Positions 9,630-42,711 of a DNA stretch of 44,450 nucleotides are shown here, piece by piece. Positions within the stretch are counted from its first letter, which is position 1. Every line of letters begins with the position of its first letter. The position numbers and the translations under genes are program-made. The DNA comes from a virus: UHGV virus genome UHGV-0157893. The stretch is one strand, 5' to 3'. Below the pieces are notes generated by a model, which saw nothing but the letters and a program-made list of their open reading frames with translations, was not told where the DNA came from and did no database searches.

Positions 9630-9758
9630 TTTCTCACCTTGTCATTCTGTGATCTGCGTCACGCTAAATCATACCAAAATGGATTGATCGCGGTTTTTAC
9701 AATATGTATATTTTACTCAAACGGAAGCATAGTTAACAAAATGGCGCGGAGGTGCGTT

Positions 9759-9947
9759 ATGACTGAAAAGCTATGGAAGTTGACGGTATTCATGACAGAC
9801 GGTAGGGAAAAGGTTATCGCCCTGTATGACGACGAGGGTGAAGCATTGGTTGACGCGCTTTTACTTGCTGAGGATGACCGCCTTTTGGGATACCAGATCG
9901 AACCTGTCAAATATGAGGCTAACAAAAATGAAAAAATACAGTCTTGA
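9759..9947 (+). CDS. Hypothetical small acidic protein (moron cassette gene 1)
   Basis: ATG 9759 with GGAGG RBS 5 nt upstream; 62 aa; opposite strand to tail genes; 3' end overlaps the next gene. Confidence 0.5.
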   Translation: MTEKLWKLTVFMTDGREKVIALYDDEGEALVDALLLAEDDRLLGYQIEPVKYEANKNEKIQS

Positions 9948-10275
9948 TGTGTGGTTAAGTGGTAGCAAGGAGTGTTTCGGATTATTTGATAGCGAAGAAG
10001 TAGCCCTGGAAGAAGGCAGGATTCTTGAATGTAGTTTAGGCCATCCAGTGAAATATGCTGCTAATCCGGTACATATAGTTGATGAGGTGGAAGATATGAA
10101 CCCGAAAGATATTAATGGTAGCTTCACTGCTTATTATGCAGATTCTATGGACCAGTCTTGCCCTGGTGAAATACACGCAAAAGGTTTCCCGGCTGACGAT
10201 CCAGAAGCAAAACGCGAATACGAAAAAGCGGCGAAAGATTTCTGTATCGATAACCTTTCAGCATTCGATAAATAA
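9928..10275 (+). CDS. Hypothetical protein (moron cassette gene 2)
   Basis: ATG 9928 (MKKYSLDVW...), 115 aa, overlaps gene 1 out of frame (translational coupling). Confidence 0.55.
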   Translation: MKKYSLDVWLSGSKECFGLFDSEEVALEEGRILECSLGHPVKYAANPVHIVDEVEDMNPKDINGSFTAYYADSMDQSCPGEIHAKGFPADDPEAKREYEKAAKDFCIDNLSAFDK

Positions 10276-10284
10276 GGCGGCAAC

Positions 10285-10533
10285 ATGGGGCGGCGCAATC
10301 ACGGTGATTATGTGTACACGTTGAAACAGGCCGCCCGCCTCATCGGTTATCATGAACACGAATTTATTGATTTGCTGATTGAGCGCGGGATACTGTACCA
10401 GGTCTGTTTAACGCTGTACCCGAAAGCGAAATACCTACATGAAAAGTTATTCATCATCATGACGGATGAAAACCAGGTTAACCATTCATTCGTCACTGAT
10501 AAGGGCGTTAATTATCTGCGTGATAACTTATAG
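10285..10533 (+). CDS. Hypothetical protein with putative helix-turn-helix (moron cassette gene 3)
   Basis: ATG 10285 with AAGG RBS; YTLKQAARLIGYHEHEFIDLLIERGIL resembles excisionase/MerR-type HTH. Confidence 0.45.
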   Translation: MGRRNHGDYVYTLKQAARLIGYHEHEFIDLLIERGILYQVCLTLYPKAKYLHEKLFIIMTDENQVNHSFVTDKGVNYLRDNL

Positions 10534-10695: not shown

Positions 10696-10887
10696 GCCAT
10701 CAACCAAAAATAAAACCTCCTTCCCTTCCCGGGATCTACACCCAACGTACCCATCACCAACGTCGTGAAGATACCATATATCGCCGTTGTCAGCTTTTAC
10801 AGTAAGGTCGTTGATCTCATAGTCGTCAAACAATGTAAAAGCGTAAGTTTTGTCAACTACACAAGTCCCGTACATAACAACCCCCAT
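10690..10887 (-). CDS. Hypothetical small protein translationally coupled to M
   Basis: ATG at 10887 shares a base with the M stop (TAATG); 65 aa. Confidence 0.4.
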   Translation of the reverse strand: MGVVMYGTCVVDKTYAFTLFDDYEINDLTVKADNGDIWYLHDVGDGYVGCRSREGKEVLFLVDGV

Positions 10888-11240
10888 TAGCCAACAACTT
10901 GCTCAAACGTTGCGTTTAGCGTGTACAAAGGCCCGTCTTTAGTCATGCTCCATTGCCGACAGACAAAAAGCCTTTGCACGTTATCCATTGACGGCGACCA
11001 GTAAAAAGCCTCGACCGCGCCGCGCGCCCTCAAGAATGCTTCCGCCTGGATTGCTACGTTTCCACCATCACCACATCCGGCGCTACTGCCTTTAAACACC
11101 AGGGTGTAGCTATCAAGCAATGGATTGATACCTTTTACCTGTCTTTGCTCATAACCATCGCCCAGCTTAACAACAGATACGTCTGGCTTCCTGGTCACGC
11201 TGTAGCTTCTTTGCGGCGTCCATCTGAACACTTCCGGCAT
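10887..11240 (-). CDS. M: Minor tail protein M
   Basis: ORF track starts at TTG 11255; ATG at 11240 after a G-rich RBS; VFRW, LGDGY and C-terminal FEQVV match lambda M. Confidence 0.75.
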   Translation of the reverse strand: MPEVFRWTPQRSYSVTRKPDVSVVKLGDGYEQRQVKGINPLLDSYTLVFKGSSAGCGDGGNVAIQAEAFLRARGAVEAFYWSPSMDNVQRLFVCRQWSMTKDGPLYTLNATFEQVVG

Positions 11241-11301
11241 AAAACCCCCCCACAAGTTACATTTTGTATATATCTTTACGCGCTTCTACGCGAAAAATAA
11301 G

Positions 11302-11318
11302 ATCATTGTCACAATGAT
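11302..11318. promoter_or_regulatory. Perfect 17-bp palindrome (operator-like) in divergent intergenic region
   Basis: ATCATTGT-c-ACAATGAT, next to a conserved 25-mer (11275-11299) and a TTTACAAAATGG motif (11328-11339). Confidence 0.4.
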
Positions 11319-11409
11319 TATAGCTAGTTTACAAAATGGCTTCACATAGCACGCAACAAGATGTATATAGAAAGCAAGAAGAAAGTAGTACCAACGAAGG
11401 AGGCCCAAA

Positions 11410-11565
11410 ATGAAACGCTATGTAGTAGTAATGCTAAATAACGCATTCGAACAAGTGGAAATAGCAATCGTTAAGGGTTTCGACGACGCATTCAAATACG
11501 GTCAATTCATGATGAATGCGAAAGAAGATGAATACCGGGACTTCTTCCTGAAGGCACTTAACTAA
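11410..11565 (+). CDS. Hypothetical small protein (51 aa; below ORF-track cutoff)
   Basis: ATG 11410 preceded by AAGGAGG; MKRYVVVMLNNAFEQVEIAIVKGFDDAFKYGQFMMNAKEDEYRDFFLKALN; stop 11563-11565. Confidence 0.5.
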   Translation: MKRYVVVMLNNAFEQVEIAIVKGFDDAFKYGQFMMNAKEDEYRDFFLKALN

Positions 11566-11582
11566 GGATGATGGGGTGAGTT

Positions 11583-11837
11583 ATGAAACTGGTAGCGATT
11601 GACAGAAATCTGAAAGCACAGAAAAACGCACAGGATCGGATCATCAAGAAAGGTAAGGAATTACTTAAAGCCTTTCTGAGAAAAGAAGTTTACCCCAAAA
11701 AGTTACGCGACGGTTACGGATACAAAATGGATATCAATCTTGATTGGAGGCTGTTTAGCGAAGATTTGAAGGTTTGGTTAATTGTTGAGCACCATGCCTA
11801 TAACAAGTTATGTGGCGTGAAAGGCACTCATAAGTGA
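11583..11837 (+). CDS. Hypothetical basic protein
   Basis: ATG 11583 with GGGGTGAG RBS; 84 aa, Lys-rich N-terminus; co-oriented with the preceding small gene. Confidence 0.5.
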   Translation: MKLVAIDRNLKAQKNAQDRIIKKGKELLKAFLRKEVYPKKLRDGYGYKMDINLDWRLFSEDLKVWLIVEHHAYNKLCGVKGTHK

Positions 11838-11894
11838 GTCGAGATATTCGAAAGGGGATATATCGCGCGGAATGGTCGTTTATAAATACGAAAA

Positions 11895-11928
11895 ATAACC
11901 CCGGCATTGCACCGGGGTTTAGTTTATT
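11895..11928. terminator. Bidirectional terminator
   Basis: CCCCGG-cattgca-CCGGGG hairpin (11899-11917) with a T-run after it on plus and an A-run before it; ends the plus-strand cassette and the tape-measure gene. Confidence 0.6.
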
Positions 11929-14266
11929 TGCGGCGAGGTTGCAACATTCCGCCTGGTCTTTGAGATTCCCTTGTTATCATTTTCATGGCTACACGTTCCA
12001 TTGTTAATTCAAGTCTGCGGCTGTCTTCGTCGCTGAATCCGTTCGTGGTCTGAATGCTGATACTGACAGGCATACTAATACCGCCACCGCCGCCAATATC
12101 ACGGCCCGGAATAACTCTGCCGTTCTCGCCAGGGATCATATATTGATTGCCGTTAGATGTCTGGAATAGCTCCGGCCTGTTGTGTTCCCCTACGCGGTAC
12201 ATATTACCACCAATGACGCTACCACCATTAAAGCGACCGCCGCCGAAAATTGACGTAGCCAGCGACATGATCGCAGTGAGCGCCGCCGAACCAGCCGCCG
12301 CCCAGCTACCGCCAGTTGACGCCGCAGTTGCCGCCGCTGCTGGGGCCGCCGCCGCAGCAATGCTTCCCTGAGCTGCTACCGCGCTTGCTGTTGTACTTGT
12401 TTGCGTGGCCTTGCTTTGTGTCTCCATCATGATCTGATCTGCTATCCAGTTTGCAGCTATGTCTGAGAGTCTGTTACCGATATTGCCGAGTATATTGCTT
12501 CCTAAGTTAGCAAAAACATCACTCAATGATTGAGTGCCGTTTAACAGGCCAACAAGCGCATTACTCATTCCGCCTTTAAGGCCATTAACACAATCACCGA
12601 TAAGGCCGTTTGTGTCGCTTTGCGCCTGCCATTGTTCCCATTTCAGATCGCGGATCTGTTGCTCATAGGCTAACAATTCCTGTTTCTGTTGCGCTTCAGT
12701 AGCGCCCAGGTCTATAAGCATTTGCTTACGGATGGCCCATTCATTTTGCGCCTGCTGGATGGGGTCAACTTCGCCTTTTAGCTGATCCATCGGGCTTACT
12801 ATTTGTGACCATTTATCACGCAATTCATCTACCGGAATTTGTGCTAATTCTTCTTTCAGTTCCTTGCCGATCCCTTTTTGCGCGGCGCGGTACTCAAGGA
12901 GCGTGATTTTACCCTGGGCAAATGCAGCATCAATGGCCTTGCCGTTCTCCAACGCTTTGCGCATGGCGGCGGCGTCTTTGTTGTACTGATCAGAAACGCT
13001 TATACCTTTGTCACCAAGCCGATCAGCTTCCGATTTCTTCTCTTTTTTCTGTTTTTTCGGCTTGTCTACTGGCTTGTCGAATCCGGTAATCGCTCCGTCA
13101 TTGGCAGCATTCTGTTCATTTTTCCTTGCTTCTTCTGTAGCCTGGATTGCTGCGGTCAGATCATCCTGTAGTTGCATGACCTTGCCAACGGTCTTCCCGT
13201 ATTTCTTCTCGTAGTTGCTGTTATATTCGTCGGTTTGCTCTCCTACTACCTCCTTCATCCATTTATAGCCATCCATTAGCGCCTTGATTGGCGTCACCAT
13301 TGCGATGATCTTCTCTGCCACCTCTCCAGCCTTAACAGCCACATCATCAAACATGTCGATAAATTCGCTACCAGCCGTTTTGAGTGTGTCGAAGCAGGTT
13401 TTAGCGAATTTAGCGCCATCGCCAAGCCCTTTAACGCCTTTCGTGATCAAGTCGATAGCTGAAACAACGCCATCTGACACGCCAAAAAGATCATCCAACT
13501 GCTCAACAAGGCCCATAATTTCTACTTTAAGCTCATTGATAGCCATGCCGGATGTGCGCGGCAACTGAGCAAACTTATCGTTTGTTTCCTGCGTAGCCGC
13601 CTGTATTGCGTTAACCATCCTTTCAGCCGTGATCTTGCCGTCCAGCATTTCGGCGCGGAACTGGCCCATTGATAATCCCATATGGCGGGCCATTGTTTGT
13701 ACGATGGTCGGCGTATTTTCAAGCAGGCTGTTAAATTCTTCGGCACGAAGAACACCGCCGTCGATAGACTGACGGAATTGACGCATTGAGTTAGACATCT
13801 GTTCCGCTGACGCGCCGCCTAATGCACCCATTTTCTGAATAGTGCCAACCAGGTTAAGCAATTGCCCTTCCGTAGCGGAGGTGTTTTTTAGTGAGATAGC
13901 CAGGCCTTGCCATAATTCGCCAGTATCTTTCAGGCTCTGCCCCGTCTCCCTGGATATTGCTTTCAGGCCGTCGAAAACCCGTCCGGCGGACTCCGCATCG
14001 CCCGTAAGCATTTTGATTTTTACGCGAAGCATTTTTGCTTGCTCCGCCATATCCATAAATTGGCGCACAGCCTCCGCAGCAATTAGCAGATGGATAACCC
14101 TGGTCAGTGCCTTGATGGATGTTTTCAGGGTGTTTACCTGGCGGTCAGCCTGTTTTGCGCCGCGCTCTATACGATCAAAGGCCTGGTCTGCCTGTCGTTG
14201 TGCAACGAGAAGTTGACCAGTTTTCGCATCAACTTCGTAATAAATTGTACCTACACTGGTAGCCAT
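11924..14266 (-). CDS. H: Tail tape measure protein
   Basis: 780 aa; ATG 14266 with GAGGT RBS; helical Ala/Gln-rich body; glycine-rich C-terminus; sits between tail chaperone and M. Confidence 0.85.
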   Translation of the reverse strand: MATSVGTIYYEVDAKTGQLLVAQRQADQAFDRIERGAKQADRQVNTLKTSIKALTRVIHLLIAAEAVRQFMDMAEQAKMLRVKIKMLTGDAESAGRVFDGLKAISRETGQSLKDTGELWQGLAISLKNTSATEGQLLNLVGTIQKMGALGGASAEQMSNSMRQFRQSIDGGVLRAEEFNSLLENTPTIVQTMARHMGLSMGQFRAEMLDGKITAERMVNAIQAATQETNDKFAQLPRTSGMAINELKVEIMGLVEQLDDLFGVSDGVVSAIDLITKGVKGLGDGAKFAKTCFDTLKTAGSEFIDMFDDVAVKAGEVAEKIIAMVTPIKALMDGYKWMKEVVGEQTDEYNSNYEKKYGKTVGKVMQLQDDLTAAIQATEEARKNEQNAANDGAITGFDKPVDKPKKQKKEKKSEADRLGDKGISVSDQYNKDAAAMRKALENGKAIDAAFAQGKITLLEYRAAQKGIGKELKEELAQIPVDELRDKWSQIVSPMDQLKGEVDPIQQAQNEWAIRKQMLIDLGATEAQQKQELLAYEQQIRDLKWEQWQAQSDTNGLIGDCVNGLKGGMSNALVGLLNGTQSLSDVFANLGSNILGNIGNRLSDIAANWIADQIMMETQSKATQTSTTASAVAAQGSIAAAAAPAAAATAASTGGSWAAAGSAALTAIMSLATSIFGGGRFNGGSVIGGNMYRVGEHNRPELFQTSNGNQYMIPGENGRVIPGRDIGGGGGISMPVSISIQTTNGFSDEDSRRLELTMERVAMKMITRESQRPGGMLQPRRK

Positions 14267-14393
14267 GATTTAACCTCATGCAAAAATGTGATCTGTGTAT
14301 CTATTTTATACAAAATGGCTTTACTTCAATGACTCCATTTTGTATAAGGAAGCTAAAGGGAATGGTCAGTAAATCAAGTTAGCGTGGTGGGTT

Positions 14394-15053
14394 ATGAAAC
14401 GGTTAGCAAAAGTGGCAATGATTGCGGCGGTATTGGGTCTGGTTGGTTGCAATGAGGATAATGAAAAAGCGCCTATAGTGACCAATCAAGAGCAACAAGC
14501 ATTAGCAGAGAAAAATGCTAAATGGCTTGCAGAACAACAAGCAAAACAAGCCGCATACGATGCACAGTTAGAAAAAGAAAATGCTGGTAAACAGTGGCTT
14601 GTAGTTGAAAGAAAAGATGATATGCAGGACGCAAAAAACGTATTCCTTTTTGTGAAAGCAGAACAATTCAGCGGAAGTCTTGATGCTTTCCCGACACTGA
14701 AGGCACAGGATAAGAATAAACCGGTATTAACAATCGCTTGCCAGGGTAATAAAACAAAAATGTTCGTAGCATGGTCACACCATGTAACTGACGCCGGGGA
14801 CACTACTTATATTAACTACCGGATCGGCGTTCACAAAGCTGTAGCTACTGAGTGGTGGCGGTCAACTAATTATAAAGCTCTTGGATTATGGGACGGCAAA
14901 AAAGCCATCCCAATGATTAAAAAACTGGTTAACGAAAAACAATTCATCATTGAAGTAGTGCCGGAAGCTGGCGACATTGAGAAAGCAGTGTTTAACATTG
15001 ATGGTCTTTATAACCACATCGACAAAGTGAAAAACGCTTGCAACTGGAATTAA
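14394..15053 (+). CDS. Lipoprotein (moron; candidate superinfection-exclusion or envelope factor)
   Basis: ATG 14394 with GGTGG RBS; signal peptide with lipobox LVGC; 219 aa; plus-strand island in the tail module. Confidence 0.6.
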   Translation: MKRLAKVAMIAAVLGLVGCNEDNEKAPIVTNQEQQALAEKNAKWLAEQQAKQAAYDAQLEKENAGKQWLVVERKDDMQDAKNVFLFVKAEQFSGSLDAFPTLKAQDKNKPVLTIACQGNKTKMFVAWSHHVTDAGDTTYINYRIGVHKAVATEWWRSTNYKALGLWDGKKAIPMIKKLVNEKQFIIEVVPEAGDIEKAVFNIDGLYNHIDKVKNACNWN

Positions 15054-15063
15054 GGGGTAAATC

Positions 15064-15438
15064 ATGAAAAAAATAATCAAAGCGGTTCTCATTGGTGTTA
15101 TGGCTTTAGCTCTTACAGGGTGCGCAAGATCAACTGATTTCGTTAAGTTAGCTGATAAAAATTTGCAAGTTGGAATGACTTGTGAGCAAGTGAATAAAAT
15201 AATGGGGGAACCACAAAGAATCGAGCATGACGGTAATTATAGTTATCACGTATGGTATTCAGTAACCAGCACGATAGGATTTACTTACATGGATGTTGAA
15301 GAATTATCCCCTTCAAGGGTTATCGCAAAGTTTGATAACTGCATCCTAAAAGAATGGAAAGATCGCAGTAAGGCAAAGTCTGTATACAATACAATCACAC
15401 ACAGTTCACCAGGTACAGCAATTAAAGATTTCAATTAG
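15064..15438 (+). CDS. Lipoprotein with BamE/SmpA-OmlA-like motif
   Basis: ATG 15064; lipobox LTGC; LQVGMTCEQVNKIMGEP resembles the BamE fold signature; 124 aa. Confidence 0.55.
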   Translation: MKKIIKAVLIGVMALALTGCARSTDFVKLADKNLQVGMTCEQVNKIMGEPQRIEHDGNYSYHVWYSVTSTIGFTYMDVEELSPSRVIAKFDNCILKEWKDRSKAKSVYNTITHSSPGTAIKDFN

Positions 15439-16129
15439 CAAAACGCCCGGATCTACCGGGCTTTTCTTGCTCACGATTTTTCATTCTTTCTAGTGCCTTT
15501 TTAGCGGCCTCCATTTGCTCGTCATAAGCACGTTTATTTATGTGAATGTTTGGCTTACTTTTCTCGTTTCTTTCGTCTGGCGGCGTTTTAGCGCGTACAG
15601 CGGCCCTATATCCGGTCATTGTCATATTCCATGCTTCCGATTCTGACAAGCCCAGGTGAGCAACGGCAGAATAGACGAATTCAAGGACGTTAAAAGTCGG
15701 CTTATATTCCCCTTCCGGGATTTCCCCGGACTCTTCTTCCGGGCCATCACCAATAAGACCGTGGTACATGCAGTGCTGCGCAAGCGTGATGATATCCTCG
15801 ATCGGCATTAATCCGGGCTTTAACTTTAACTTACCCGAAGGAGTAAACCAGCATTCGCCCAATAACGGGCCTATTTCGTCGTCTGAGCAACATTTCAGGA
15901 TGTGCATTGATGTCTGAACTATTTCACCATAACACCGCGCCAGAATGCGATTGCGTAGGTCTGGATCTGCTGGCAATCGTGATGGATATTTGCCGCCGTG
16001 GATAAGTGCGAAATATTCGACAAGCTCACTATCGTTGCCGATTTTAGCCATCGCAGCAAAGCAAGGATTAAACTCATAGCGCTTACCGTTCACCACGGCA
16101 GCAAATTGTCCTGTACGAACATGGATCAT
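15431..16129 (-). CDS. Putative tail assembly chaperone
   Basis: ORF track start at 16138 is GTG; ATG at 16129 with AAGGTGA RBS; position between major tail protein and tape measure; acidic C-terminal region. Confidence 0.45.
   Translation of the reverse strand: MIHVRTGQFAAVVNGKRYEFNPCFAAMAKIGNDSELVEYFALIHGGKYPSRLPADPDLRNRILARCYGEIVQTSMHILKCCSDDEIGPLLGECWFTPSGKLKLKPGLMPIEDIITLAQHCMYHGLIGDGPEEESGEIPEGEYKPTFNVLEFVYSAVAHLGLSESEAWNMTMTGYRAAVRAKTPPDERNEKSKPNIHINKRAYDEQMEAAKKALERMKNREQEKPGRSGRFAN
15445..15468 (+). terminator. Rho-independent terminator after the lipoprotein pair
   Basis: gcccgg-atcta-ccgggc followed by ttttctt. Confidence 0.6.
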
Positions 16130-16184
16130 AGTATTCACCTTAAAAGAAAAGGGGCCAAATGGCCCCGATTGTTAATATTGGCTG

Positions 16185-16661
16185 TTATGCTGGCGGAACG
16201 TCGCCTACCGTTACCTTGCCAGCGCTTTCGCACTCAATAGACCAGGTGGAAACATCATCATGCGGATCTTCTTCTTTAAAGGAAGTGCAAAGGAATGGGC
16301 CTTCAGTTACGTCTACAGGAGAAACGATCTTCAGCCATACATAAGGTTGTGATCCGGTGGTTTCACCTGGCGTAATTACGTGGCGTTTCAGTGCTTTCTG
16401 ATTATGGATTTCTTCAGTGCGGGACACACCGTCGCCGGAGAAAGAAACGGATTTGTAAGTAACCATTGATTCTTTCGTGTAATCGGCTGATTTATCGGCG
16501 GTGGCGTCAGCGGTTTCCCATTCAACGGAAAGTGTTTTACCACGCATCATGCCTAACGCTTTGTACGCTTCAGCTTCCGGCTTCGCATTTGGACAAGCGA
16601 TAGCGAAGAATACAGCAACGTCACGGCCTGTAAACGTGCCTTTTTCGCAAGTCTGAGACAT
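16185..16661 (-). CDS. Major tail (tube) protein
   Basis: ATG 16661 with GAGGT RBS; 158 aa; position and size typical of siphovirus tube protein. Confidence 0.6.
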   Translation of the reverse strand: MSQTCEKGTFTGRDVAVFFAIACPNAKPEAEAYKALGMMRGKTLSVEWETADATADKSADYTKESMVTYKSVSFSGDGVSRTEEIHNQKALKRHVITPGETTGSQPYVWLKIVSPVDVTEGPFLCTSFKEEDPHDDVSTWSIECESAGKVTVGDVPPA

Positions 16662-16674
16662 GTTTAGTTACCTC

Positions 16675-17061
16675 TTATCTGGATATTATGGTTTGAAAAG
16701 CTACGGTAAAAATAAAGCGCCCTTCTCTCGTCTGCATTGCGGGAATAGCGCCAACTGGCTTCATGTGTGTAATTTTATCAGTTTTATACTCGGTTATCAT
16801 ACTTTGACGTATTGCGTCGGCGAGGTCTTCCACTTCACTAATATTTGCATCGTTACGCGCTGAAATAACCAGGATGCGAAAATAGTCACGGGTTATCGCC
16901 TCTTCTCCCGCCGCGCCGCCGTTTTGCTGTATGACAATGTATCTGTCTTTATTAGAATTGGATCTCTCATTCCAGAAACGGGCCTGCAAAATATAACCTT
17001 CGTCGTACCCGTGGGACTTAATCCAATCCCTTATTTCATCGTATACTTCGCTGCGTTTCAT
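16675..17061 (-). CDS. Tail terminator / tail completion-like protein
   Basis: ATG 17061; 128 aa; position between neck genes and tube gene. Confidence 0.45.
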   Translation of the reverse strand: MKRSEVYDEIRDWIKSHGYDEGYILQARFWNERSNSNKDRYIVIQQNGGAAGEEAITRDYFRILVISARNDANISEVEDLADAIRQSMITEYKTDKITHMKPVGAIPAMQTREGRFIFTVAFQTIISR

Positions 17062-17531
17062 GATTGTTTCGTCCAGTACCCAAGTTTAATCGTGTTCCAG
17101 ATCTCATTAAAATTATCTGGTTCCTCGAACGCCTTGCGCAAAAATTCAGGTTCAGCGTTTGGATCCCAGTAGTAACCCTTACCAGTACCGCCGCCGAACT
17201 CAACTACCTGTTTCGGGCCGAAATCTGAAAGGTTATTGGTTTTCCCGAAATGCTCGCGAGGCTGTCCCATTAATGTCCCTGGCATGTCATGCACCCATTC
17301 AGCATAGCGGGCGGTATATCCAACCCTGAGGCAAAGGCCGTTGCCGTTTTTCTCGACAGTCTGGTACATGCTGTTAATTAAAAAACCCGTATCAACTGGC
17401 GTCATTCCAGATGCAAGGCCGGACGCGACATTGCCAACAATCCATAGCACTTCATAAGTCTTTTTGTCTGCTATATTCCTGATTTCTTCCGTCATTTTCA
17501 TACGGACACGTCTGACGCCTTTCAGTGGCAT
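17058..17531 (-). CDS. Head-tail joining protein (HK97 gp10-like position)
   Basis: ATG 17531 with AGGAGG RBS; 157 aa; 4-bp overlap with next gene. Confidence 0.45.
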   Translation of the reverse strand: MPLKGVRRVRMKMTEEIRNIADKKTYEVLWIVGNVASGLASGMTPVDTGFLINSMYQTVEKNGNGLCLRVGYTARYAEWVHDMPGTLMGQPREHFGKTNNLSDFGPKQVVEFGGGTGKGYYWDPNAEPEFLRKAFEEPDNFNEIWNTIKLGYWTKQS

Positions 17532-17533
17532 GA

Positions 17534-17908
17534 TTAACCTCCTGTGACGATCTTATAATCCGGAGTGTCGTTAAACATACTCATGTCCCATTCAACGATC
17601 CCGGTTATAAAATTGGCTCCAGCCGCCAGAGGGTCAGCAATAGCGGTAGTGTCGCCAGTAGCAAGCATCCACCCTTTTTCCGGGCGCTGCACTGGCTGCA
17701 TTTTGTAAAGCAGTTCGGTATATACGGTTATTGTGTTGCTAATCTCATTCCCGTTTGCGTCTGTTGCGGTTCCGTCAGTGCGTTCCCATGCACAATCAAT
17801 CAGGTATGGCGTTCCGTATACGTCGGAGTTTGTCCAGTCGTCACGCGTCACTGGGTAAATGGTGGCCAACGCTTTGTAGCTGAATCTCGCGATCTTACTC
17901 ATAGCCAT
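17534..17908 (-). CDS. Head closure / head-tail adaptor protein
   Basis: ATG 17908 with GGAG RBS; 124 aa. Confidence 0.45.
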   Translation of the reverse strand: MAMSKIARFSYKALATIYPVTRDDWTNSDVYGTPYLIDCAWERTDGTATDANGNEISNTITVYTELLYKMQPVQRPEKGWMLATGDTTAIADPLAAGANFITGIVEWDMSMFNDTPDYKIVTGG

Positions 17909-18080
17909 AGCTCCATTTAACGATTTTCGGATGGGTTTTAGCTACGTGCGGGCAAAGAATTACCCATTCACCAGCATCATTGAGGTAGGCTGCCACCTGT
18001 CGCCCGGTGTCTGTCTTCACCCACACGCGGGTAAACAGTTTCGGCAATAGCGGATCCGGTAATGTCAGGTCGTTCCACAT
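17895..18080 (-). CDS. Hypothetical small protein
   Basis: ATG 18080 with GGGAGGA RBS; 61 aa. Confidence 0.45.
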   Translation of the reverse strand: MWNDLTLPDPLLPKLFTRVWVKTDTGRQVAAYLNDAGEWVILCPHVAKTHPKIVKWSYGYE

Positions 18081-18082
18081 TG

Positions 18083-18469
18083 TTACATCCTCCCGCTTTT
18101 ACCTATCCACAGTCCGGCGTGCGCGGTGTTTTCTGGATCTGCTGGAATTAGTTCGGCTGTACAGTGATGTTTATCAAGTGAGTAAAGCAACGAATAGGCC
18201 GCCTTCCATCGTTTGTTGAAATCGACATAGCGGTATGACTGGCTTGCACCGTTCGGACCCGTCTGCGATGAGACGTATTTATCAGCCTGGCTGAGTCCTA
18301 ACAGTCCAATCAGATAAAGCTGAATCAATGTTGCAGTGGAGGCCGGATAGTTGGCATCAAGGCATTCATTAACGCTATTTGCCTGCTCCACCAGCAAAGA
18401 TAAGATAATGTCTGGCAGGTCAATACCCTGGCTTTCAAGATATTCCCGCGCCTGTTCTGTAGTGACCAT
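18083..18469 (-). CDS. Head-tail connector (gp6-like)
   Basis: ORF-track frame trimmed to ATG 18469 with GGAG RBS; 128 aa; just downstream of capsid gene. Confidence 0.5.
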   Translation of the reverse strand: MVTTEQAREYLESQGIDLPDIILSLLVEQANSVNECLDANYPASTATLIQLYLIGLLGLSQADKYVSSQTGPNGASQSYRYVDFNKRWKAAYSLLYSLDKHHCTAELIPADPENTAHAGLWIGKSGRM

Positions 18470-18534
18470 TTTGTTTTCTCCACATACAAAAAAAATCCCC
18501 GGCATCGCGCCGGGGAGTTACAGAAACACATCAA

Positions 18535-19599
18535 TCAGGTATTGCTGCCGTAGACCACACCTGAACGACCTTTCATATCACAGGTGATCTGAAGACCCTC
18601 AGCAGACATAATGCGGAAGTTGTAGTTATCGGTCGGCATCATGCGCGGTAACGGAACTACGCCAGTGGTCATGCCAATCAGCGGGGTGATGACGCTGCGA
18701 CTACGCTGATAAGCGATAAATTCGTTGCCAGTCAGCGCATAGGTCTGGCGAATATCATCAACCGGGACAAACGGCTTGATAACATCCAGTACACTACCAA
18801 CAATTGCGCCATTAACGATGTGTGGGCGTGCCAGGTTAGCCATGATTTCTGGCGATACCCACATTACATCGTATTTAGCTACGAAGTTGGCGCGGGCCAG
18901 TTTCCCGAACTCACCAGTGGTAAAGAATTCAATAATCTTATCGAAAGTCGCGGTGGTCAGGTCGATTTTAGCGACAGATTTCAGTTTAAGTTGCTGGGTG
19001 TTTTTGTGGTTTTTAATACCCATTGCTTTATGACCATCTACCACGATATTGTCGTTACCGTTCAGATAGAACTGTACGCGGGCTTTATTGAATTTTTTCA
19101 GTTTCAGGCGTTGGCTATCCAGGGCGAGATCGATACCTACAGTATTCAGACCTTGAGCAAGACGCCAGTTGACACCATAACCAGCCGCGAACATCGGGAT
19201 CGGGTCGCCATCGCTGCCGTATTCGGTGTGATCAAAGCCGTGCGGCGCTTGACCATCCATAGACATCACGACTTCATCGTTGATGTCGCCGGATACGCTG
19301 TACATTTTCAGCGTTTTACCGATAGGCAGTACGGTTTGCACACCCATCAGGTCGTTGACGATTTCAATACCGATTTCTTCGGTGTTCAGTTCGATAATCT
19401 GGTTATCTATTTCTTTCCAGAATTCTTTTGCGAAGCCGCCGACGGCGTTACAGGTCAACATTTCAGCGGTCATATTTGCCTGATTTGCTGCAATCATGGC
19501 GTTGTGCTGCTCGTTGAAGATATTGCGTTGCGCCCACAGTTCTTTCCAATGGCCCTGCATACGGGCGTTGGTAGCAAGGTTTTCTTTAGTAAAGTACAT
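18535..19599 (-). CDS. Major capsid protein
   Basis: ATG 19599 with AAGGGGGA RBS; 354 aa; position after scaffold and decoration-like genes; rho-independent-looking stem-loop downstream. Confidence 0.65.
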   Translation of the reverse strand: MYFTKENLATNARMQGHWKELWAQRNIFNEQHNAMIAANQANMTAEMLTCNAVGGFAKEFWKEIDNQIIELNTEEIGIEIVNDLMGVQTVLPIGKTLKMYSVSGDINDEVVMSMDGQAPHGFDHTEYGSDGDPIPMFAAGYGVNWRLAQGLNTVGIDLALDSQRLKLKKFNKARVQFYLNGNDNIVVDGHKAMGIKNHKNTQQLKLKSVAKIDLTTATFDKIIEFFTTGEFGKLARANFVAKYDVMWVSPEIMANLARPHIVNGAIVGSVLDVIKPFVPVDDIRQTYALTGNEFIAYQRSRSVITPLIGMTTGVVPLPRMMPTDNYNFRIMSAEGLQITCDMKGRSGVVYGSNT

Positions 19600-19616
19600 G
19601 TTTTCCCCCTTTTAAA

Positions 19617-20045
19617 TTAAGCGACGCGAACGCGGATAAAGTCTTCCGCTTCCAGGGTTACGTCTTCCTGGCAGTATGCGACAATCGGATCTGCGGGTGC
19701 TGATTCAAGTGGCTCGGTAAACAGCTTGACGCCAGTAGCCGTGAAAGCGATAGCTGCCCCCTTTTTGTATGCTGCGGCAGGGACACGAAGAGCAAACTCA
19801 CGGCCCTGCTCCACATAATCAGCAACAACGGTTGCACCTTTAGCAATTTCATCAGCAATGGTTTTGCCTTCATGGAATGCTGGGTTAACGATGAAAAGTT
19901 GGGCCTTGCCAACATCTGCAAGGGCTGCTTTAGCGAATTTACCTTCAGCCAGTTTAACCAGTTCACCGGGCTTCACCGCCTCATTGGCTGCATAGGTTTC
20001 GGTAATTGACTTGCCATCAATATTTACACGACGAAAACGAAACAT
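19617..20045 (-). CDS. Putative head decoration / capsid accessory protein
   Basis: ATG 20045 with AAGGGGA RBS; 142 aa, Ala/Gly-rich; directly upstream of capsid gene. Confidence 0.4.
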   Translation of the reverse strand: MFRFRRVNIDGKSITETYAANEAVKPGELVKLAEGKFAKAALADVGKAQLFIVNPAFHEGKTIADEIAKGATVVADYVEQGREFALRVPAAAYKKGAAIAFTATGVKLFTEPLESAPADPIVAYCQEDVTLEAEDFIRVRVA

Positions 20046-20061
20046 TGTGATCCCCTTTTAA

Positions 20062-21354
20062 TTAGAAATAAGTGTTAAAGTCTGGTACTTCGCCTTTTTT
20101 ACCTTCGCTTGCTGCGTTGGTTGCCATCGGCGCGGCTTTGCCCAGGGATTTAAACATTGCTTCTAACGCTTCACCACTTAAAGCGTTAGCAACAATTTCG
20201 CCGTGCACTTTTGCTACTGCGGCGCGTTTTTCTGCTACTTCTTTATCTGCGTTTGCTGCGATCTCTTCTTTAATCGCTTTCTGATTGGTCTGTAATTCTT
20301 CTACGCTTGCCTGTACTGGTTTAAGTGCTTCAGCGATTGCATTAGCCATATTAGCGGTGATGCTTTCGTTAATTTCTTTCACCAGTTCGGCGCGTTCTTC
20401 TTTGGTCAAAGGCATGGGTTCACCCTCCGATTTATTGGCCTTAATTTTTTCATTCAGGGAGAAAAGATTAGATAGGTGTTCAGCGAACTGAGCGAACCAG
20501 GATTTACTTTCCTCATTGGTTGCAAGCTCGCCATTATTGAGAATAATTTTATCAGCCTGTTTTTCATATGTGCAAACTTGAGCACTTTCGGTATTAGTGG
20601 CAATTGTCACTTCTTTATCGGTGAAGTCCACAACATAGACATAATCTGCGTCGGAGAACAGTTCACGCGCAGCTTCTTCCAATTGTCTTTCAAGCGTGCG
20701 ATAACTGTTTTCTTTCATTGCCACCGCCATTAACGGCTTCGCCTGGTCAGTGTTAACCATCAGGCCAACGCCCTGCTCTGGCGATGCGGCTGGCGGTTCA
20801 TGAAGTAAGATAGCGTCATGGTCAATCGACATAATTTTGACAACGCTGTCAGCACCCTGGGCTTTCATTTCTTCAGTAGCTGGCATACGCTGACGATATA
20901 CTGCAACAGATGACCAGATCGGATCTTTGCTTTCGCCTTTTTCCAGTGCTTCCAGTCGGCTCAATAATTCGCGGCCCTGTTCTGAATGGCTGGCGGTTTC
21001 AACATCCACCCATTTTTCCACATAAACACGATTGCCGCGTAATTCTACGTTTCTGTTCCACGCCCCACAAAAACCCGTGTTTAATCCTTCCGGGCTAAAT
21101 GCGGAAACAAATTTACCGTCCACGGTAGGATGACCTAACGGGGCAAGTGTTCCCTCCAGCGACTGGTAATTAGCGATAATTTCAGCTTCCGGGTAATATT
21201 CCCGATTCATAACAATATTGAAGGGCAACGTATATGACGGAACTACAATGTGTTCACGCCCGTTATACGTTTCCCGGCGTATGGTATTAGCGGTTAATTT
21301 GGTATTAACCTGAATCAATTCTTTACTCACGGTTTTACTCCCAATCTTCGCCAT
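20062..21354 (-). CDS. Putative capsid scaffolding / prohead maturation protein
   Basis: ORF track start is TTG 21369; ATG at 21354; C-terminal third is Ala/Glu/Lys-rich helical; position between minor head protein and capsid. Confidence 0.5.
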   Translation of the reverse strand: MAKIGSKTVSKELIQVNTKLTANTIRRETYNGREHIVVPSYTLPFNIVMNREYYPEAEIIANYQSLEGTLAPLGHPTVDGKFVSAFSPEGLNTGFCGAWNRNVELRGNRVYVEKWVDVETASHSEQGRELLSRLEALEKGESKDPIWSSVAVYRQRMPATEEMKAQGADSVVKIMSIDHDAILLHEPPAASPEQGVGLMVNTDQAKPLMAVAMKENSYRTLERQLEEAARELFSDADYVYVVDFTDKEVTIATNTESAQVCTYEKQADKIILNNGELATNEESKSWFAQFAEHLSNLFSLNEKIKANKSEGEPMPLTKEERAELVKEINESITANMANAIAEALKPVQASVEELQTNQKAIKEEIAANADKEVAEKRAAVAKVHGEIVANALSGEALEAMFKSLGKAAPMATNAASEGKKGEVPDFNTYF

Positions 21355-22279
21355 ATTTAGCGTGCGCAACCTTATAGTTTTCTTGCGCCCGATCTAATAT
21401 TCGTTTGTTTAATATGTTACCGTCTTCGTCAACCAATACGGTAATCGTGCTACATTTGCAGTTAATTGAATTTGGGGATCTGCTCCACCATTCGCGCTGC
21501 TCATCTATGGTGTATGTTTTCCCGTGCCGCTGCGCGTGCGATAGCCTGGTAGTCGGTGACAATGCCGAAATGTGCATTTGCATGGTGCGCAGATTAAGCT
21601 CTTCTGTCGCCGCTTCTGCCTCATCCATACGCGCTGTGCGTAACGCTGTGCATATTTCAGTTCGGGCAATACGTTTGCACCTGTATAGCGGCAATTGCGT
21701 TTCCTGCTGCAATGTGCGCGCTATTTCCAGTGGATTTAAACCACGGGCCATCCCTTCGGTTAATCGCCGGGCCATATCCTTCTTGATCTGTGCTGTTAGC
21801 CCGCGCATTTCCTCAAATACACGGGTACGAACAAGGGCAAGGCGCGTGCGGTAAGTCGTACTTGATAGCACGGCGGATACATCAGGATAAGCGCTTGAGT
21901 AAGTAACAGACTGGTTGGCAAGGTTGGCGTATTCCTGTGCCGTGCCGCGCTGATATGCCACCTTCACGTATTCCTGCCAAAACCAAAAACTTTCCGGGTC
22001 GGTTAGCTCGAATATCTCATCAATCATGTCGCTGGCGTCCTCCAGCATGTCGTGCAATTCATCCATGTAAATCTGGAAGGTGTATTTCTTATTAACAGCC
22101 AGGCTATATTGTATTCTGTCCAGTATGGCGATATATGGATCGGCTATTTTCTTCAGGCAGGATTTGAAACGCTTAATAGCTCCCGACCGTAACTTACCTG
22201 TCATGGTCGGGTCTTCGGTGTTAGATGGCATTATCGCGGCGGGAGGTATTCGCCTGATTATTTTCTTCACCTTCATCAT
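21335..22279 (-). CDS. Head morphogenesis protein (SPP1 gp7 / Mu F-like minor head protein)
   Basis: ATG 22279 with GAGGA RBS; 314 aa; position right after portal. Confidence 0.6.
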   Translation of the reverse strand: MMKVKKIIRRIPPAAIMPSNTEDPTMTGKLRSGAIKRFKSCLKKIADPYIAILDRIQYSLAVNKKYTFQIYMDELHDMLEDASDMIDEIFELTDPESFWFWQEYVKVAYQRGTAQEYANLANQSVTYSSAYPDVSAVLSSTTYRTRLALVRTRVFEEMRGLTAQIKKDMARRLTEGMARGLNPLEIARTLQQETQLPLYRCKRIARTEICTALRTARMDEAEAATEELNLRTMQMHISALSPTTRLSHAQRHGKTYTIDEQREWWSRSPNSINCKCSTITVLVDEDGNILNKRILDRAQENYKVAHAKYGEDWE

Positions 22280-23591
22280 CGTTTTCCTCTTCCATTTCCA
22301 CTACACTGGCTGGGCCATCGTATCCGGCAGCCTCGCGGATCTCGTCACCGCTAAATATTTCTTCACCAGTAGCCAGGCAAGCCTGATTGATTTGCGCCAT
22401 TTTGTGTGCCGCTTCCAGTAGTTCGGCTTTGGTCATGGCGTTAAGGTCGTCCCACAGTACAGATACGTCTACTGGCATACCGATAAGGCGGAGATTTGCC
22501 ATCTTGCGGAATAGTTCTTCAAGCTCGCCTCCTATTTCCTCGCGGCGGGTCATACAGCGATTATTGAAGTAGCGGAGGTCTTCAGTTGATGCGCGTTCAC
22601 CCTGCTGATTCCCAACCAGGATACGCGTCGGGATGTCGATACCAGCGGCGGCAGTTTGCAGGTTGACGTCATAGGTTGCAGATGGATCGGCTACGGCAGT
22701 CACCAGCGGGCTAACACTTGCCCCTTGTAATGCCATCATCACATCATTACCCCTGTTCATTTCTGCTGCTGCCTCGTTGAATTTCTCGCGTAGCTCTGTA
22801 ACGTCGCAATCGTATGTTGCAGCCAGGGAACGGAAATCAATCTCTTTATCGAACGAGATAGCCAGTTGACGCGCGGCATTTTTCAGGAATGACTCACCGC
22901 TGCCGCCTTCCACTTTCTCCAGTGACACAAAGGCGTTATAGGAAGGCTCAAGGAAAGCGATGGCATCATCAGAATAGTCGCCAAATATGAATATGCGATC
23001 AGGGTGGATCTTTCTCGCAATGGTCTTACTGTTAATGCGTTCTTTGTATTCCCACCATGTTGGCAGGCCATAGTTTTCTTTATCCGGGTTTTCTTCGAAG
23101 TCCTTCGGCGTAAGAGCACCAGCCCACACAGGGGTGAATTTGGCAATGCCTACGCCTTTTGTTACTGGCTGATCCCACGGCTTATTATCTCTGACATGAA
23201 TTAACAGGCCCGCATAACGACCGATGAGGCGGCGGCGATCGCATTCAGCTATGACGCGCCAGAAACGATTATCAAATTGCTTTTTAATTTCTCTTTCCCA
23301 CGGCGTTTCCGTTTCTGCTTTCTCGTCTTCCGTACCTTCAATCAGCGTTGGCCTGGTGCGCCAGCACGTAGTAATGATCTTCTCAATGGCACCGTGAGCG
23401 ATACCACCGCGACGATACAGCTTGTAAAGATCTTCATAGGTGATTTCTTCTTTGAATCCGTATTCACTCCACGCAGCGTCACGTTTTGCATCAATACCCA
23501 TTGAGAATGGGTTAGCGGCTGCATAGCGGGCAAAGGCCGCCTGGCGTTGTGACAAGGCAGCATTAACCGCCAATTCTAAATTGGATGGCAT
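22221..23591 (-). CDS. Portal protein
   Basis: ATG at 23591 with AGGAG RBS (the earlier ATG at 23612 lacks an RBS); 456 aa with acidic C-terminus; directly downstream of terL. Confidence 0.7.
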   Translation of the reverse strand: MPSNLELAVNAALSQRQAAFARYAAANPFSMGIDAKRDAAWSEYGFKEEITYEDLYKLYRRGGIAHGAIEKIITTCWRTRPTLIEGTEDEKAETETPWEREIKKQFDNRFWRVIAECDRRRLIGRYAGLLIHVRDNKPWDQPVTKGVGIAKFTPVWAGALTPKDFEENPDKENYGLPTWWEYKERINSKTIARKIHPDRIFIFGDYSDDAIAFLEPSYNAFVSLEKVEGGSGESFLKNAARQLAISFDKEIDFRSLAATYDCDVTELREKFNEAAAEMNRGNDVMMALQGASVSPLVTAVADPSATYDVNLQTAAAGIDIPTRILVGNQQGERASTEDLRYFNNRCMTRREEIGGELEELFRKMANLRLIGMPVDVSVLWDDLNAMTKAELLEAAHKMAQINQACLATGEEIFSGDEIREAAGYDGPASVVEMEEENDDEGEENNQANTSRRDNAI

Positions 23592-23669
23592 AATGTTTAC
23601 TCCTGAATACATGTTTACGCGTTGCTACGCGAAAAATAGAAAAATTAGTGAGTGATTGTGAGGCAGATT

Positions 23670-25148
23670 TTAAAATCCGCGCAGGCGCTTAGGTAACATG
23701 AGGCCCATTGCCTGCGGCTGGCTTAATTCAGTGATACCCCATACCATTGCGTCGAGGCGGTCAGGTGATTTTTTAGCGGTAGCTGGAACGTATTCCATCA
23801 TTTGATTTTCCAGCGTGTACAGGCTGCCTGTGTGGGCCACCCTTCCCTGTGCATACAGTGCCGATATTGGCTCGGCGCGGGCGAATTTACCCTTGCTTGC
23901 GTGCACCTTAACAATGCGGCCTTTGAATCCGGCGTTACGTAGCGTGGCCTCTGCCATTTCGCCGCCCTGGTTTGTTTCGATAACTATCGCGTCAGCTTCA
24001 TGGATGTTGTAGGCGTTCATTGATGCCTGCGCCCAGTCGTTAGGAGACATACGGCCTGAGTAGTCGCCATCAACAGAATACTGAGCATTTTTACCGCCAC
24101 CGTAAGCGGAACATGCAACGATCCCCGTTTCGTCCGATTCTTCCGATGATGTTGTAGCCGGGTCGATAGCTATTACCGTGCGGATCTTGTCCTGCGTTAT
24201 CTGCATCCGGTGCGCTGCGGTTATCATGGCTTCAGTCCACAATGCACCCTCTTCGTCGAATTTACGCGGGCGCTGCATGTACTGGGCCTCGAATGACCGC
24301 CTGTGTGCTTTCAGTCCAGCTTCATGAATGTCATTGTGCTTTTTAGGCCACAGCCATCCATCAGGCAGGTTGTGAGGAATGGGTATTGCGAACTCGTTTT
24401 CAGGGTACAAATCCCTGTAGTCAACGCTATTGTCGATCTTCACTGGCAGGTTAAGGTGATACCACTTCTCACCGCTTCCACCTCGTAACAGGTAGCCGGA
24501 CAAATCATCGTAGTGGATGCGCTGCATGATGACGATAACAGGCGTTGTTTGCACTGCCAGACGTGAAGCAAGTGTGTCGTTATAGTTTGTGTTTACCTGC
24601 TTTCTCACCACGTCAGAGTAAGCGTCAGCGGGTTTTAATGGGTCGTCGATGATTAACGCGCCGTTAAATCCCGGCTCCATATACCCAGCACGGAACCCAG
24701 TTACCTGGCCCAGCGATGACGTTGCATACACGCCGCCACCGTATTCAGTCCACCACATCGATTTCGAGTTGGCATCGTTGCGGATCTTCATGGGCCACAT
24801 TGCCTGATAGTCAGGCGTACAGATCATGTTTCTTACAGTCGAGGAATTGAGTAACGCCAGGTTGTTGGAATAGGAAACGTGAAGGAATCTTGTGCGGGGA
24901 TTTATTGCGAGGGACCGCGCCATCATGTTGATGGTAGCGATCATGGTTTTACCGTACCCTGGGGGAATGTTAATGATGAGGCGGGTTATCTCACCATTAA
25001 TAACGCGTTGTAGTGCATCGCGGATAGCTATGTGATGACCTGAGACAAACATCTTCGTACCGTTTGCTTGCTTGTAGAAATAGCGGTTGAAAAACAGGCC
25101 ATCGTTTTCACATTTGGACTGAATAACTCGTTCTTTGATTGTCAACAT
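23670..25148 (-). CDS. terL: Terminase large subunit
   Basis: ATG 25148 (track start is GTG 25154), GAGGTG RBS; Walker A-like PPGYGKT, Walker B-like LIIDDP, C-terminal nuclease-type acidic motifs. Confidence 0.85.
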   Translation of the reverse strand: MLTIKERVIQSKCENDGLFFNRYFYKQANGTKMFVSGHHIAIRDALQRVINGEITRLIINIPPGYGKTMIATINMMARSLAINPRTRFLHVSYSNNLALLNSSTVRNMICTPDYQAMWPMKIRNDANSKSMWWTEYGGGVYATSSLGQVTGFRAGYMEPGFNGALIIDDPLKPADAYSDVVRKQVNTNYNDTLASRLAVQTTPVIVIMQRIHYDDLSGYLLRGGSGEKWYHLNLPVKIDNSVDYRDLYPENEFAIPIPHNLPDGWLWPKKHNDIHEAGLKAHRRSFEAQYMQRPRKFDEEGALWTEAMITAAHRMQITQDKIRTVIAIDPATTSSEESDETGIVACSAYGGGKNAQYSVDGDYSGRMSPNDWAQASMNAYNIHEADAIVIETNQGGEMAEATLRNAGFKGRIVKVHASKGKFARAEPISALYAQGRVAHTGSLYTLENQMMEYVPATAKKSPDRLDAMVWGITELSQPQAMGLMLPKRLRGF

Positions 25149-25150
25149 AA

Positions 25151-25636
25151 TCACACCTCGTCTTCTACTTCCTGGACGATGCGGGCGATCTCTTCTTTCG
25201 TGACTTCAACCTGAACGGGCGCTTCTTCCTTGTTGCCGACGATCTCCTGTGTGACGCGTTCGCCGTATTTGCGCGGCTGAAGTTTTGCCAGTAGCCACTT
25301 GCGCGTTTCAATCATTAGTTGGTGGCGTCGCAACTGATCTTTATCTGCGTTCTCTGCTGCATCAGCCAGATCGATGATTTCATCAGCCAATACCTCGAAG
25401 CCGATCTCCTTCGCGCGCGCGTACATGATCGAGAATTCCGGTACATCCCTAAACCATTTCAGGATTGTGGAACGGGTAGGCATACCAGGCATTTTCGAAA
25501 TTTTATTAATACTCTGACCATCCGCCACCAGTTCACAGATTTCTAATGCTTTTTCTTCGGTATAACCATGCGGACGGCCCACCTTTTTAGCGGCTGGCTT
25601 TTTATCGTCAGCCTTTGCCTTTTTAGTGCGGGCCAT
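25151..25636 (-). CDS. terS: Terminase small subunit
   Basis: ATG 25636 with GAGGTG RBS; Lys-rich N-terminus then HTH-like KALEICELVADGQSINKISK; stop abuts terL start. Confidence 0.7.
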   Translation of the reverse strand: MARTKKAKADDKKPAAKKVGRPHGYTEEKALEICELVADGQSINKISKMPGMPTRSTILKWFRDVPEFSIMYARAKEIGFEVLADEIIDLADAAENADKDQLRRHQLMIETRKWLLAKLQPRKYGERVTQEIVGNKEEAPVQVEVTKEEIARIVQEVEDEV

Positions 25637-25647
25637 AATTTCACCTC

Positions 25648-25734
25648 TCAAAACCATTTGCACAGAATATATAAACACGCAATTAATGTTGCGCAGTATG
25701 TTAATACTTCCAACCAGTCGAATAGCTCTTTCAT
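25648..25734 (-). CDS. Tiny hydrophobic ORF 6 (28 aa, predicted single TM helix)
   Basis: ATG 25734 with AAGGG RBS; MKELFDWLEVLTYCATLIACLYILCKWF; stop TGA 11 nt before the terS RBS. Confidence 0.45.
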   Translation of the reverse strand: MKELFDWLEVLTYCATLIACLYILCKWF

Positions 25735-28140: not shown

Positions 28141-28164
28141 AAAACCCGGCACGGGGCCGGGTAG
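28141..28164 (-). terminator. Intrinsic terminator just upstream of holin (tR'-like position)
   Basis: Minus strand reads CCCGGC-cccgt-GCCGGG then TTTTTGCTTTG, 20 nt before the holin RBS. Confidence 0.6.
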
Positions 28165-28475: not shown

Positions 28476-28652
28476 TTACGCAGTTCTGTATATCAGTCCG
28501 TTATCAAGCAATGTTTGCATGTGTTCGCGATCCATGTCGCTTAATTCCCAATAAGGAACATCTTCATTCCTTATCATCACCTCTTCGCCTCTTACCAAAT
28601 AGGCGATGTCAAATACCTTATGCAAATAGATGCCATCTTCGATCTCGTTCAT
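28476..28652 (-). CDS. Hypothetical small protein (58 aa), paralog of upstream gene
   Basis: ATGA overlap with upstream stop; MNEIEDGIY... shares the IEDGIY start with 28649..28831. Confidence 0.45.
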   Translation of the reverse strand: MNEIEDGIYLHKVFDIAYLVRGEEVMIRNEDVPYWELSDMDREHMQTLLDNGLIYRTA

Positions 28653-35392: not shown

Positions 35393-35414
35393 CAATGACG
35401 CCATTTTGTAAACT

Positions 35415-42655: not shown

Positions 42656-42711
42656 AATCTGATCTCCGTATATCCTTGATGATACTTAATAAAAAATCAT
42701 CTTCGTTAATT

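Follow-up and report, generated by a model that had tools for sequence, protein, structure and literature searches.

A two-copy hairpin element preceding the portal and M genes in the late region of mEpimmI phages

The window analysed here is the whole 44,450-nucleotide (nt) stretch of the virus genome UHGV-0157893, which by its sequence is a phage or prophage of the mEpimmI (mEp021) group of temperate Escherichia coli siphoviruses. Two copies of a short element lie in its late region, one upstream of a gene for an M-like minor tail protein (site 1) and the other upstream of the portal gene (site 2), and the positions of the element and of the surrounding genes are collected in Table 1. On the plus strand, the copies read tttacgcgcttctacgcgaaaaata at 11275-11299 and tttacgcgttgctacgcgaaaaata at 23614-23638. 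A preliminary description of this DNA had reported a near-identical 25-base-pair (bp) pair at these positions, and it was correct both in the location and in the number of differences, which is exactly two. Both copies lie on the minus strand, as it had also said, which is the sense strand of M and portal, in the same orientation and upstream of the ribosome-binding site (RBS). The likeness between the sites spans about 35 nt and thus reaches beyond the 25-mer, and the conserved core is R-U5-CGCG-UAG-nnn-CGCG-UAAA. A search of the window on both strands with up to three mismatches, the first check that the preliminary description had proposed, returned only these two copies, and none appeared in 100 dinucleotide shuffles; a looser search with the core gave no third copy. 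A covariance model built from the element scores 62-66 bits at sites 1 and 2, and its next best match in the window and the whole mEp021 genome reaches 15 bits (E ~0.6). The complete mEp021 genome contains exactly two copies. A 10-mer, CGCGTAGAAG, follows a T-rich stretch at 28771-28780 on the minus strand of the window, inside a small open reading frame (ORF) at 28649-28831, and is probably a coincidence, as ~0.09 such matches are expected by chance.

Site 2 is located inside the 78-nt spacer between the terL stop codon and the portal ATG, where it occupies the 3' half and ends 13 nt before the Shine-Dalgarno (SD) sequence AGGAG. A scan for promoters and terminators near site 2 found none, so that the site must be internal to the long late transcript. 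The spacer is an insertion specific to mEpimmI phages: in Klebsiella phage RAH1, whose portal is 58% identical, the terL-portal gap is 15 nt and holds no element. A hexamer CACAAT at a comparable distance from site 2 is not conserved, and a mosaic junction between two terL alleles lies ~40 nt upstream of the site. Site 1 is located within a 170-bp divergent region between gene M, which has a poly-G SD at ~11245-11251, and a cassette on the opposite strand. The TATAAT hexamer of this region is a putative -10 element of an M promoter; if so, site 1 would cover roughly nucleotides +13 to +45 of the M transcript and belong to its 5' leader. Both sites have several strong intrinsic terminators downstream of them, and the late operon as a whole has an unusual layout, interrupted by several strong terminators and three opposite-strand cassettes.

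Table 1. Features of the window that bear on the element, with strand and sequence or family assignments.
Feature	Position	Strand	Details
Site 1 element, extended	11266-11300	-	sense TTATTTTT-CGCG-TAGAAG-CGCG-TAAAG-ATATATAC
Site 2 element, extended	23605-23639	-	sense CTATTTTT-CGCG-TAGCAA-CGCG-TAAAC-ATGTATTC
Site 1 hairpin core	11279-11292	-	5' arm CGCG(U) 11292-11288; loop AGAA; 3' arm (G)CGCG 11283-11279
Site 2 hairpin core	23618-23631	-	5' arm CGCGU 23631-23627; loop AGCA; 3' arm ACGCG 23622-23618
TATAAT hexamer	11317-11322	-	invariant in all relatives; 18 nt upstream of the site 1 A-U5 tract (18-22 nt upstream of site 1)
M-like minor tail protein gene, downstream of site 1	10887-11240	-	PF05939; ATG 11240
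Opposite-strand cassette	11410-11837	+	51-amino-acid ORF and ParE-like toxin; diverges from M
Bidirectional intrinsic terminator	11897-11919	.	after the tape measure gene; separates upstream late genes from the site 1 region
L gene	8925-9629	-	
Tape measure gene	11924-14266	-	homology to mEp021_64
Portal gene, downstream of site 2	22221-23591	-	PF06381 (Phage_portal_3); ATG 23591; SD AGGAG 23600-23604
terL	23670-25154	-	terminase large subunit; stop 78 nt upstream of portal ATG
terS	25151-25678	-	Sf6-like
Q-type late antiterminator gene	33154-33876	-	PF03589
CI-like repressor gene	43156-43803	-	HTH_3 and Peptidase_S24

All seven GenBank relatives carry both sites, with almost no sequence change (mEp021, mEp010, mEp013, mEp044, mEp515, mEp554 and MagusPhagus; the group is described in PMC11893012). 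The group is internally close, at 85-100% DNA identity; nine genera have been proposed for the family. A pattern scan of IMG/VR returned ~90 loci, typically two per contig. This pattern fixes the core, and loci were hence also fetched through neighbouring proteins, with the element not presupposed; in that set, the element is found in 31 of 31 M loci of the group and in 49 of 49 portal loci. It is also found in ~25 metagenome contigs through a pattern for the site 1 flank, a scan that gave no new stem variants, and the site 2 region is present in 34 of 5,426 complete E. coli genomes. At the core positions only rare variants occur, and the adjacent intergenic positions carry common polymorphisms. 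The preliminary description had named a lack of conservation in other phages as one part of what would refute its view; the element is kept in all relatives retrieved. Outside the group, the element is absent from M homologues of other phage groups at 67-71% identity, many of which have a terminator directly before M, and a portal search of genome contigs found no occurrence. A collection with a single genome for each bacterial species yielded 5 matches to the core pattern, in unrelated taxa, where chance alone was estimated to give ~4 for a pattern of 19 bases. One IMG/VR match (L093) is the 3' untranslated region of a picorna-like RNA virus and was set aside as a chance match. Judged from these alignments, the element is lineage-specific, under purifying selection and always in two copies, and its conservation points to a function common to both sites. 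In the more distant Cronobacter phage ES2 (500-890), the terL-portal spacer is ~390 nt with a small ORF and no hairpin element, and it includes a stretch like the 3' half of a tRNA (GGTTCGAGTCC...).

As sense RNA, both sites fold locally into a GC stem of 4-5 bp that can be extended by U:A pairs. The CGCGU...ACGCG hairpin given in the preliminary description for both copies is present in full at site 2, with 5 bp, whereas site 1 has CGCGU/GCGCG, in which the fifth pair is a G.U wobble; the A/U-rich flanks reported with it are found. The predicted folding energy is -10.6 kcal/mol at site 1 (z = -2.8) and -6.2 kcal/mol at site 2, and in silico the hairpin is kept as an independent module in leaders of 112-122 nt. 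It lies 13-27 nt upstream of the SD of portal and M. An extended stem of 12 bp was considered and rejected: pair 7 seemed compensatory (U-A versus C-G), but C-A is common there, and only U:A stacking is left.

Natural variants of the core are asymmetric. The TAG after the first CGCG is essentially invariant, and the three bases between it and the second CGCG vary freely (AAG, AAT, AGG, AAA, CAA, CTA, CGA), a pattern that either a direct repeat or a loop recognised from the 5' side would produce. Loop types are exchanged in some genomes, with the site 2 type CAA at site 1 (L128) and the site 1 type AAG at site 2 (L199). In the set fetched through neighbouring proteins, the variants of site 1 are TGCG...CGCG, CGCG...TGCG, a 1-nt loop deletion, TAG to TGG, and changes in the length of the U run. 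The two stem changes are independent and both C to U, which keeps a G.U pair in the sense RNA and would give an A.C mismatch in the antisense RNA. The variant at the R position, A to G, keeps a purine, and the 1-nt loop deletion is harmless to the hairpin and changes the spacing of the DNA repeat from 10 to 9 bp. Taken at face value, these variants weakly favour a hairpin in the sense strand.

We tentatively favour the reading that the element is an RNA-level leader module of late mRNAs, serving in processing, 5'-end stabilisation or factor binding, and would put its probability somewhat short of an even chance. RNase E prefers to cleave at RN↓WUU, and at both sites a nearly invariant tract R-U-UUUU directly adjoins the stem, with R being A in 28 of 31 unique sequences and G in one; a sense stem-loop with an adjoining single-stranded motif of this kind is thus found at site 1 and at site 2. 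In the proposed mechanism, RNase E would cut in the A/G-U-UUUU tract directly 5' of the stem, and the leftover U's would pair with the AAA 3' of the stem to form a flush 5'-terminal stem-loop. Such a terminal stem-loop would shield the downstream message from 5'-end-dependent decay, and the expression of portal and M would be uncoupled from the RNA upstream, which for portal (site 2) is the terminase message and for M (site 1) the leader or antisense read-through. The conserved purine, the U run, the stem and the AAA would all be explained by a processing and stabilising role of this kind. Given the invariance of UAG in the loop, a sequence-specific factor may read the hairpin as well.

Stabilising stem-loops with adjacent RNase E sites are known from the ompA 5' untranslated region, from papBA processing and from message leaders of phages T4 and f1. 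The element resembles them as a small stable sense stem-loop with A/U-rich single-stranded flanks upstream of a gene that may need separate expression; it differs in that the stem and part of the loop are invariant in sequence, not merely conserved in structure, and in that only two copies exist. A second class for comparison is formed by the hairpins that serve as translational operators of phage proteins, such as the MS2 coat operator, the T4 gp43 and RegA sites, and the Mu Com site at mom. A short hairpin with conserved loop bases near the RBS, common to a small set of genes, is shared with this class, but the hairpin of the element ends 13-27 nt before the SD, overlaps neither SD nor AUG, and has no predicted effect on RBS accessibility. 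The preliminary description had proposed a shared signal for translational control, RNA processing or re-initiation. Conservation at both sites supports the shared function, and the processing part survives in the module favoured here. Re-initiation is implausible: 78 nt separate the terL stop from the portal start, and what precedes site 1 is an antisense cassette and not a translated gene. Simple masking or unmasking of the RBS by the hairpin is unlikely, because removal of the hairpin leaves the predicted accessibility of SD and AUG unchanged.

Several observations weigh against the leader module. In silico, the predicted unpaired probability of SD and AUG stays the same when the hairpin is mutated or deleted, and the distance from hairpin to start codon is unequal, at 26 nt for site 2 and 38 nt for site 1. 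The invariance of the stem and of the loop UAG exceeds what a generic stabilising hairpin needs. In a covariation test, 92% of the cells were paired with no double-sided change and a score no higher than that of shuffles, though sequences this close leave the test with little power in either direction. Each C-to-U change hits the first position of the direct repeat CGCGTA, which suits a DNA site equally well. A bolder reading, which we consider quite unlikely, is that the hairpin is the operator of a dedicated factor encoded by the phage, which would read the CGCG-UAG stem-loop in late mRNA or in the non-template DNA of the elongation complex. The two assembly initiators, portal (heads) and M (tail tips), would then form a small regulon, co-regulated after transcription and particular to mEpimmI phages. 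Family searches of the neighbouring small proteins gave no candidate for such a binding factor.

Among the alternatives, a double-stranded DNA site for a phage or host protein is the strongest, although we consider it unlikely. The element would then act as a roadblock or operator, at one site past the putative M promoter and at the other in the terL-portal spacer, and the protein would read either the direct repeat CGCGTA-N4-CGCGTA, with a 10-bp period on the same helix face, or the imperfect dyad TTTWCGCG-N6-CGCGWAAA. Operators made of direct repeats with a 10-bp period are known, as in the lambda CII site TTGC-N6-TTGC, the P2 C and Cox boxes, and OmpR/PhoB-type sites. The element shares with them a 6-bp unit placed once per helical turn between A/T-rich flanks: the hexamer TACGCG is repeated exactly as TACGCG-N4-TACGCG at both sites. 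An invariant TAG followed by three free bases is what a direct repeat would give, both stem variants fall at position 1 of the hexamer, near-invariant sequence is typical of protein recognition, and site 1 lies just downstream of the invariant TATAAT. It departs from known operators of this type in having no promoter hexamer at the required distance; no promoter can be recognised at site 2 on the plus or the minus strand, and the relatives show no -10 at a fixed distance on either strand. The natural 1-nt deletion, with its 9-bp spacing, is still present in phage contigs, which also speaks against a repeat read as DNA. The CpxR box is GTAAA-N5-GTAAA, and the element fits it only in part. The rule for NagC/Mlc operators, TT/AA at +/-5,6 around the dyad centre (PMC4288165), is not satisfied either, as the element has G/C at these positions.

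The two copies could also be duplicated leader sequence that has no function, or almost none, and stays similar through recent ancestry, through gene conversion, or through a role as homologous linkers at module junctions. This is improbable. In its favour, the group is closely related as a whole, and conservation is just as high elsewhere in the intergenic region of site 1; conversion would fit the swapped loop types, the mosaic junction of terL alleles lies upstream of site 2, and the leaders of the tape measure protein (TMP) gene, M and L share other short blocks. Against this, at both sites the core varies far less than the sequence directly beside it, neither copy is lost in any genome among the ~90 loci, and the spacer of site 2 is absent in outgroups and was therefore gained and then retained.

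That the hairpin is a boxB-like loading site in the late operon, used by the N-like antiterminator Gp17 or by some other antitermination factor that binds RNA, we regard as having very little chance of being right. The window carries three nut-like sites with boxA and boxB, at 42705-42750 (-), 35275-35316 (-) and 43968-44010 (+), which are the nutR1, nutR2 and nutL described for mEp021, and their boxB hairpins are GCCGC-UGGAAGU-GCGGC, GCGC-UGAAAU-GCGU and CGCU-GCGA-AGCG. Like the element, these have CGC/GCG stems and purine-rich loops, and the element shares with lambda-type nut sites, including those of the group itself (PMC11893012), a GC-stem hairpin in a transcribed, untranslated stretch upstream of terminators. 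Several strong terminators do lie downstream of both sites, and nutR2 is followed by GCGUAGAAA (GCGTAGAAA), which matches the element core at 8 of 9 bases. A boxA (CGCTCTTTA-like) is nevertheless absent near either site: of the five GCTCWTTAA in the window, three belong to the nut sites and the other two are unrelated, with none near 11.3 kb or 23.6 kb. The loops of the element are AGAA, AGCA, AGAG, AGCU and AGCG (that is, AGNN, or UAGNNN if read more widely) and not GNRA-like, against GAAA, GCGA and GGAAG in the phage's own boxB hairpins. The element lies in a late Q-dependent operon and not after early promoters, and read-through of the late terminators is already explained by the Q-type antiterminator of the phage. 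It is likewise highly improbable that the element makes up all or part of a promoter, whichever strand is read: the plus strand can be read by eye as TTTACG-N17-TAAGAT at site 1 and TTTACG-N17-TAGAAA at site 2, but a consensus scan for sigma-70 promoters is empty at both sites, the plus-strand -10 of site 1 is not conserved and is TGAGAT or TGATAA in most relatives, without the essential A at position 2, the minus-strand bases after the element (TGTATG, TGTACA, TATATA) keep no -10 pattern, and a plus-strand transcript from site 2 would merely run antisense into terL.

Other known classes were compared and set aside. An intrinsic terminator does not fit, as the U run of the sense strand precedes the hairpin and UAAAG or UAAAC follows it, the other strand has AAAAAUA after it, and a terminator scan is empty at both sites. 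The ops element recognised by RfaH has the 12-nt consensus GGCGGTAGnnTG on the non-template strand; only GTAG(C) is in common, and the GGCGG part is absent. Across the window, no Rfam model matched at its gathering threshold, and around both sites a limit of E up to 10 returned matches at chance level only. A short upstream ORF after the element (ATG TAT...) has ATA in about half of the site 1 alleles and is not conserved. Long plus-strand ORFs annotated across site 1 in mEp554, mEp010 and mEp044 lack the start codon in the window and were treated as gene-caller artefacts. A target of a homing endonuclease was rejected, since an HNH insertion 3' of site 1 occurs in one contig only. In that contig (L094; IMGVR_UViG_2695420423_000006), an HNH homing endonuclease gene is inserted ~50 nt past the site 1 element and before M, and the distance from element to M is about 0.5 kb.

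The element is covered by no described family, and short conserved hairpins in leaders and between cistrons are a familiar kind of phage regulation. In the description of the mEpimmI group no hairpin or intergenic element is mentioned, nothing is described of late gene control beyond the Q-like gene, and these phages are reported to be as frequent as lambdoid phages in E. coli isolates from the human gut (PMC11893012). A signal before the portal gene and the first tail-tip gene would give a handle on the balance of head and tail expression in a fragmented operon. If the element is a processing or stabilising module or a protein operator, it would serve as a compact and portable part with which expression can be tuned in engineered coliphages; should it be without effect, it is an annotation detail only.

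The tail cluster is split three times by opposite-strand cassettes between bidirectional terminators, the one beside site 1 (Table 1) and two others at 9639-10533 (+) and 14394-15438 (+). The first holds the 51-amino-acid ORF and ParE-like toxin, which are a probable toxin-antitoxin pair; of the remaining two, one holds an ANT/KilAC-like protein and the other a VasI-like protein. The minus-strand sequences ahead of the tape measure gene (~14296-14318), M (~11317-11339) and L (~9665-9682) share CCATTTTG, directly followed by a -10-like hexamer: TATAAA for TMP, TAAACT then TATAAT for M, and G-TATGAT for L. The TMP and L leaders additionally share CAGATCACA. These shared blocks suggest that each tail gene block owns a promoter module derived by duplication.

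A 9-mer, ACAAAATGG, is enriched in the window, with 35 matches at up to one mismatch against 18 expected, and forms palindromes of the type ACAAAATGG-N16-CCATTTTGT. Copies are located at 14310-14343, 30126-30159, 35337-35409, 43034-43042, 43789-43955, 9674-9744, 11331-11339 and 11259-11267. Copies adjoin the immunity-region promoter TTGACT-17-TATATT and lie just upstream of the -35 of the plus-strand promoters of all three cassettes, and one imperfect copy stands directly 3' of the site 1 hairpin. From this distribution, the 9-mer looks like an operator common to the early or immunity promoter and the tail-operon cassettes.

The portal gene is subject to a clash of names. In E. coli genomes of RefSeq (e.g., NZ_CP015228.1 1731390-1731454), the Prokaryotic Genome Annotation Pipeline (PGAP) labels it 'anti-CBASS protein Acb1 family protein' or 'DUF1073 domain-containing protein', which is probably a naming problem; its identity as portal is backed by Pfam Phage_portal_3, by its position after terL and by the GenBank annotation of mEp021 and MagusPhagus. 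In mEp021 (record 28919-28945), ATA replaces the usual portal ATG. The depositors placed the start at an in-frame ATG 5 nt past the element, upstream of AGGAG, and an in-frame TTG one codon past the ATA is an alternative. Elsewhere in mEp021, at 24238-24320, just upstream of the holin gene, a promoter-like TTGTAG-17-TAAAAT is followed ~45 nt later by a strong terminator, an arrangement that resembles PR'-tR' of lambda. In the window, the pre-holin terminator is kept at 28144-28162 (-), with an additional ORF of 75 amino acids there.

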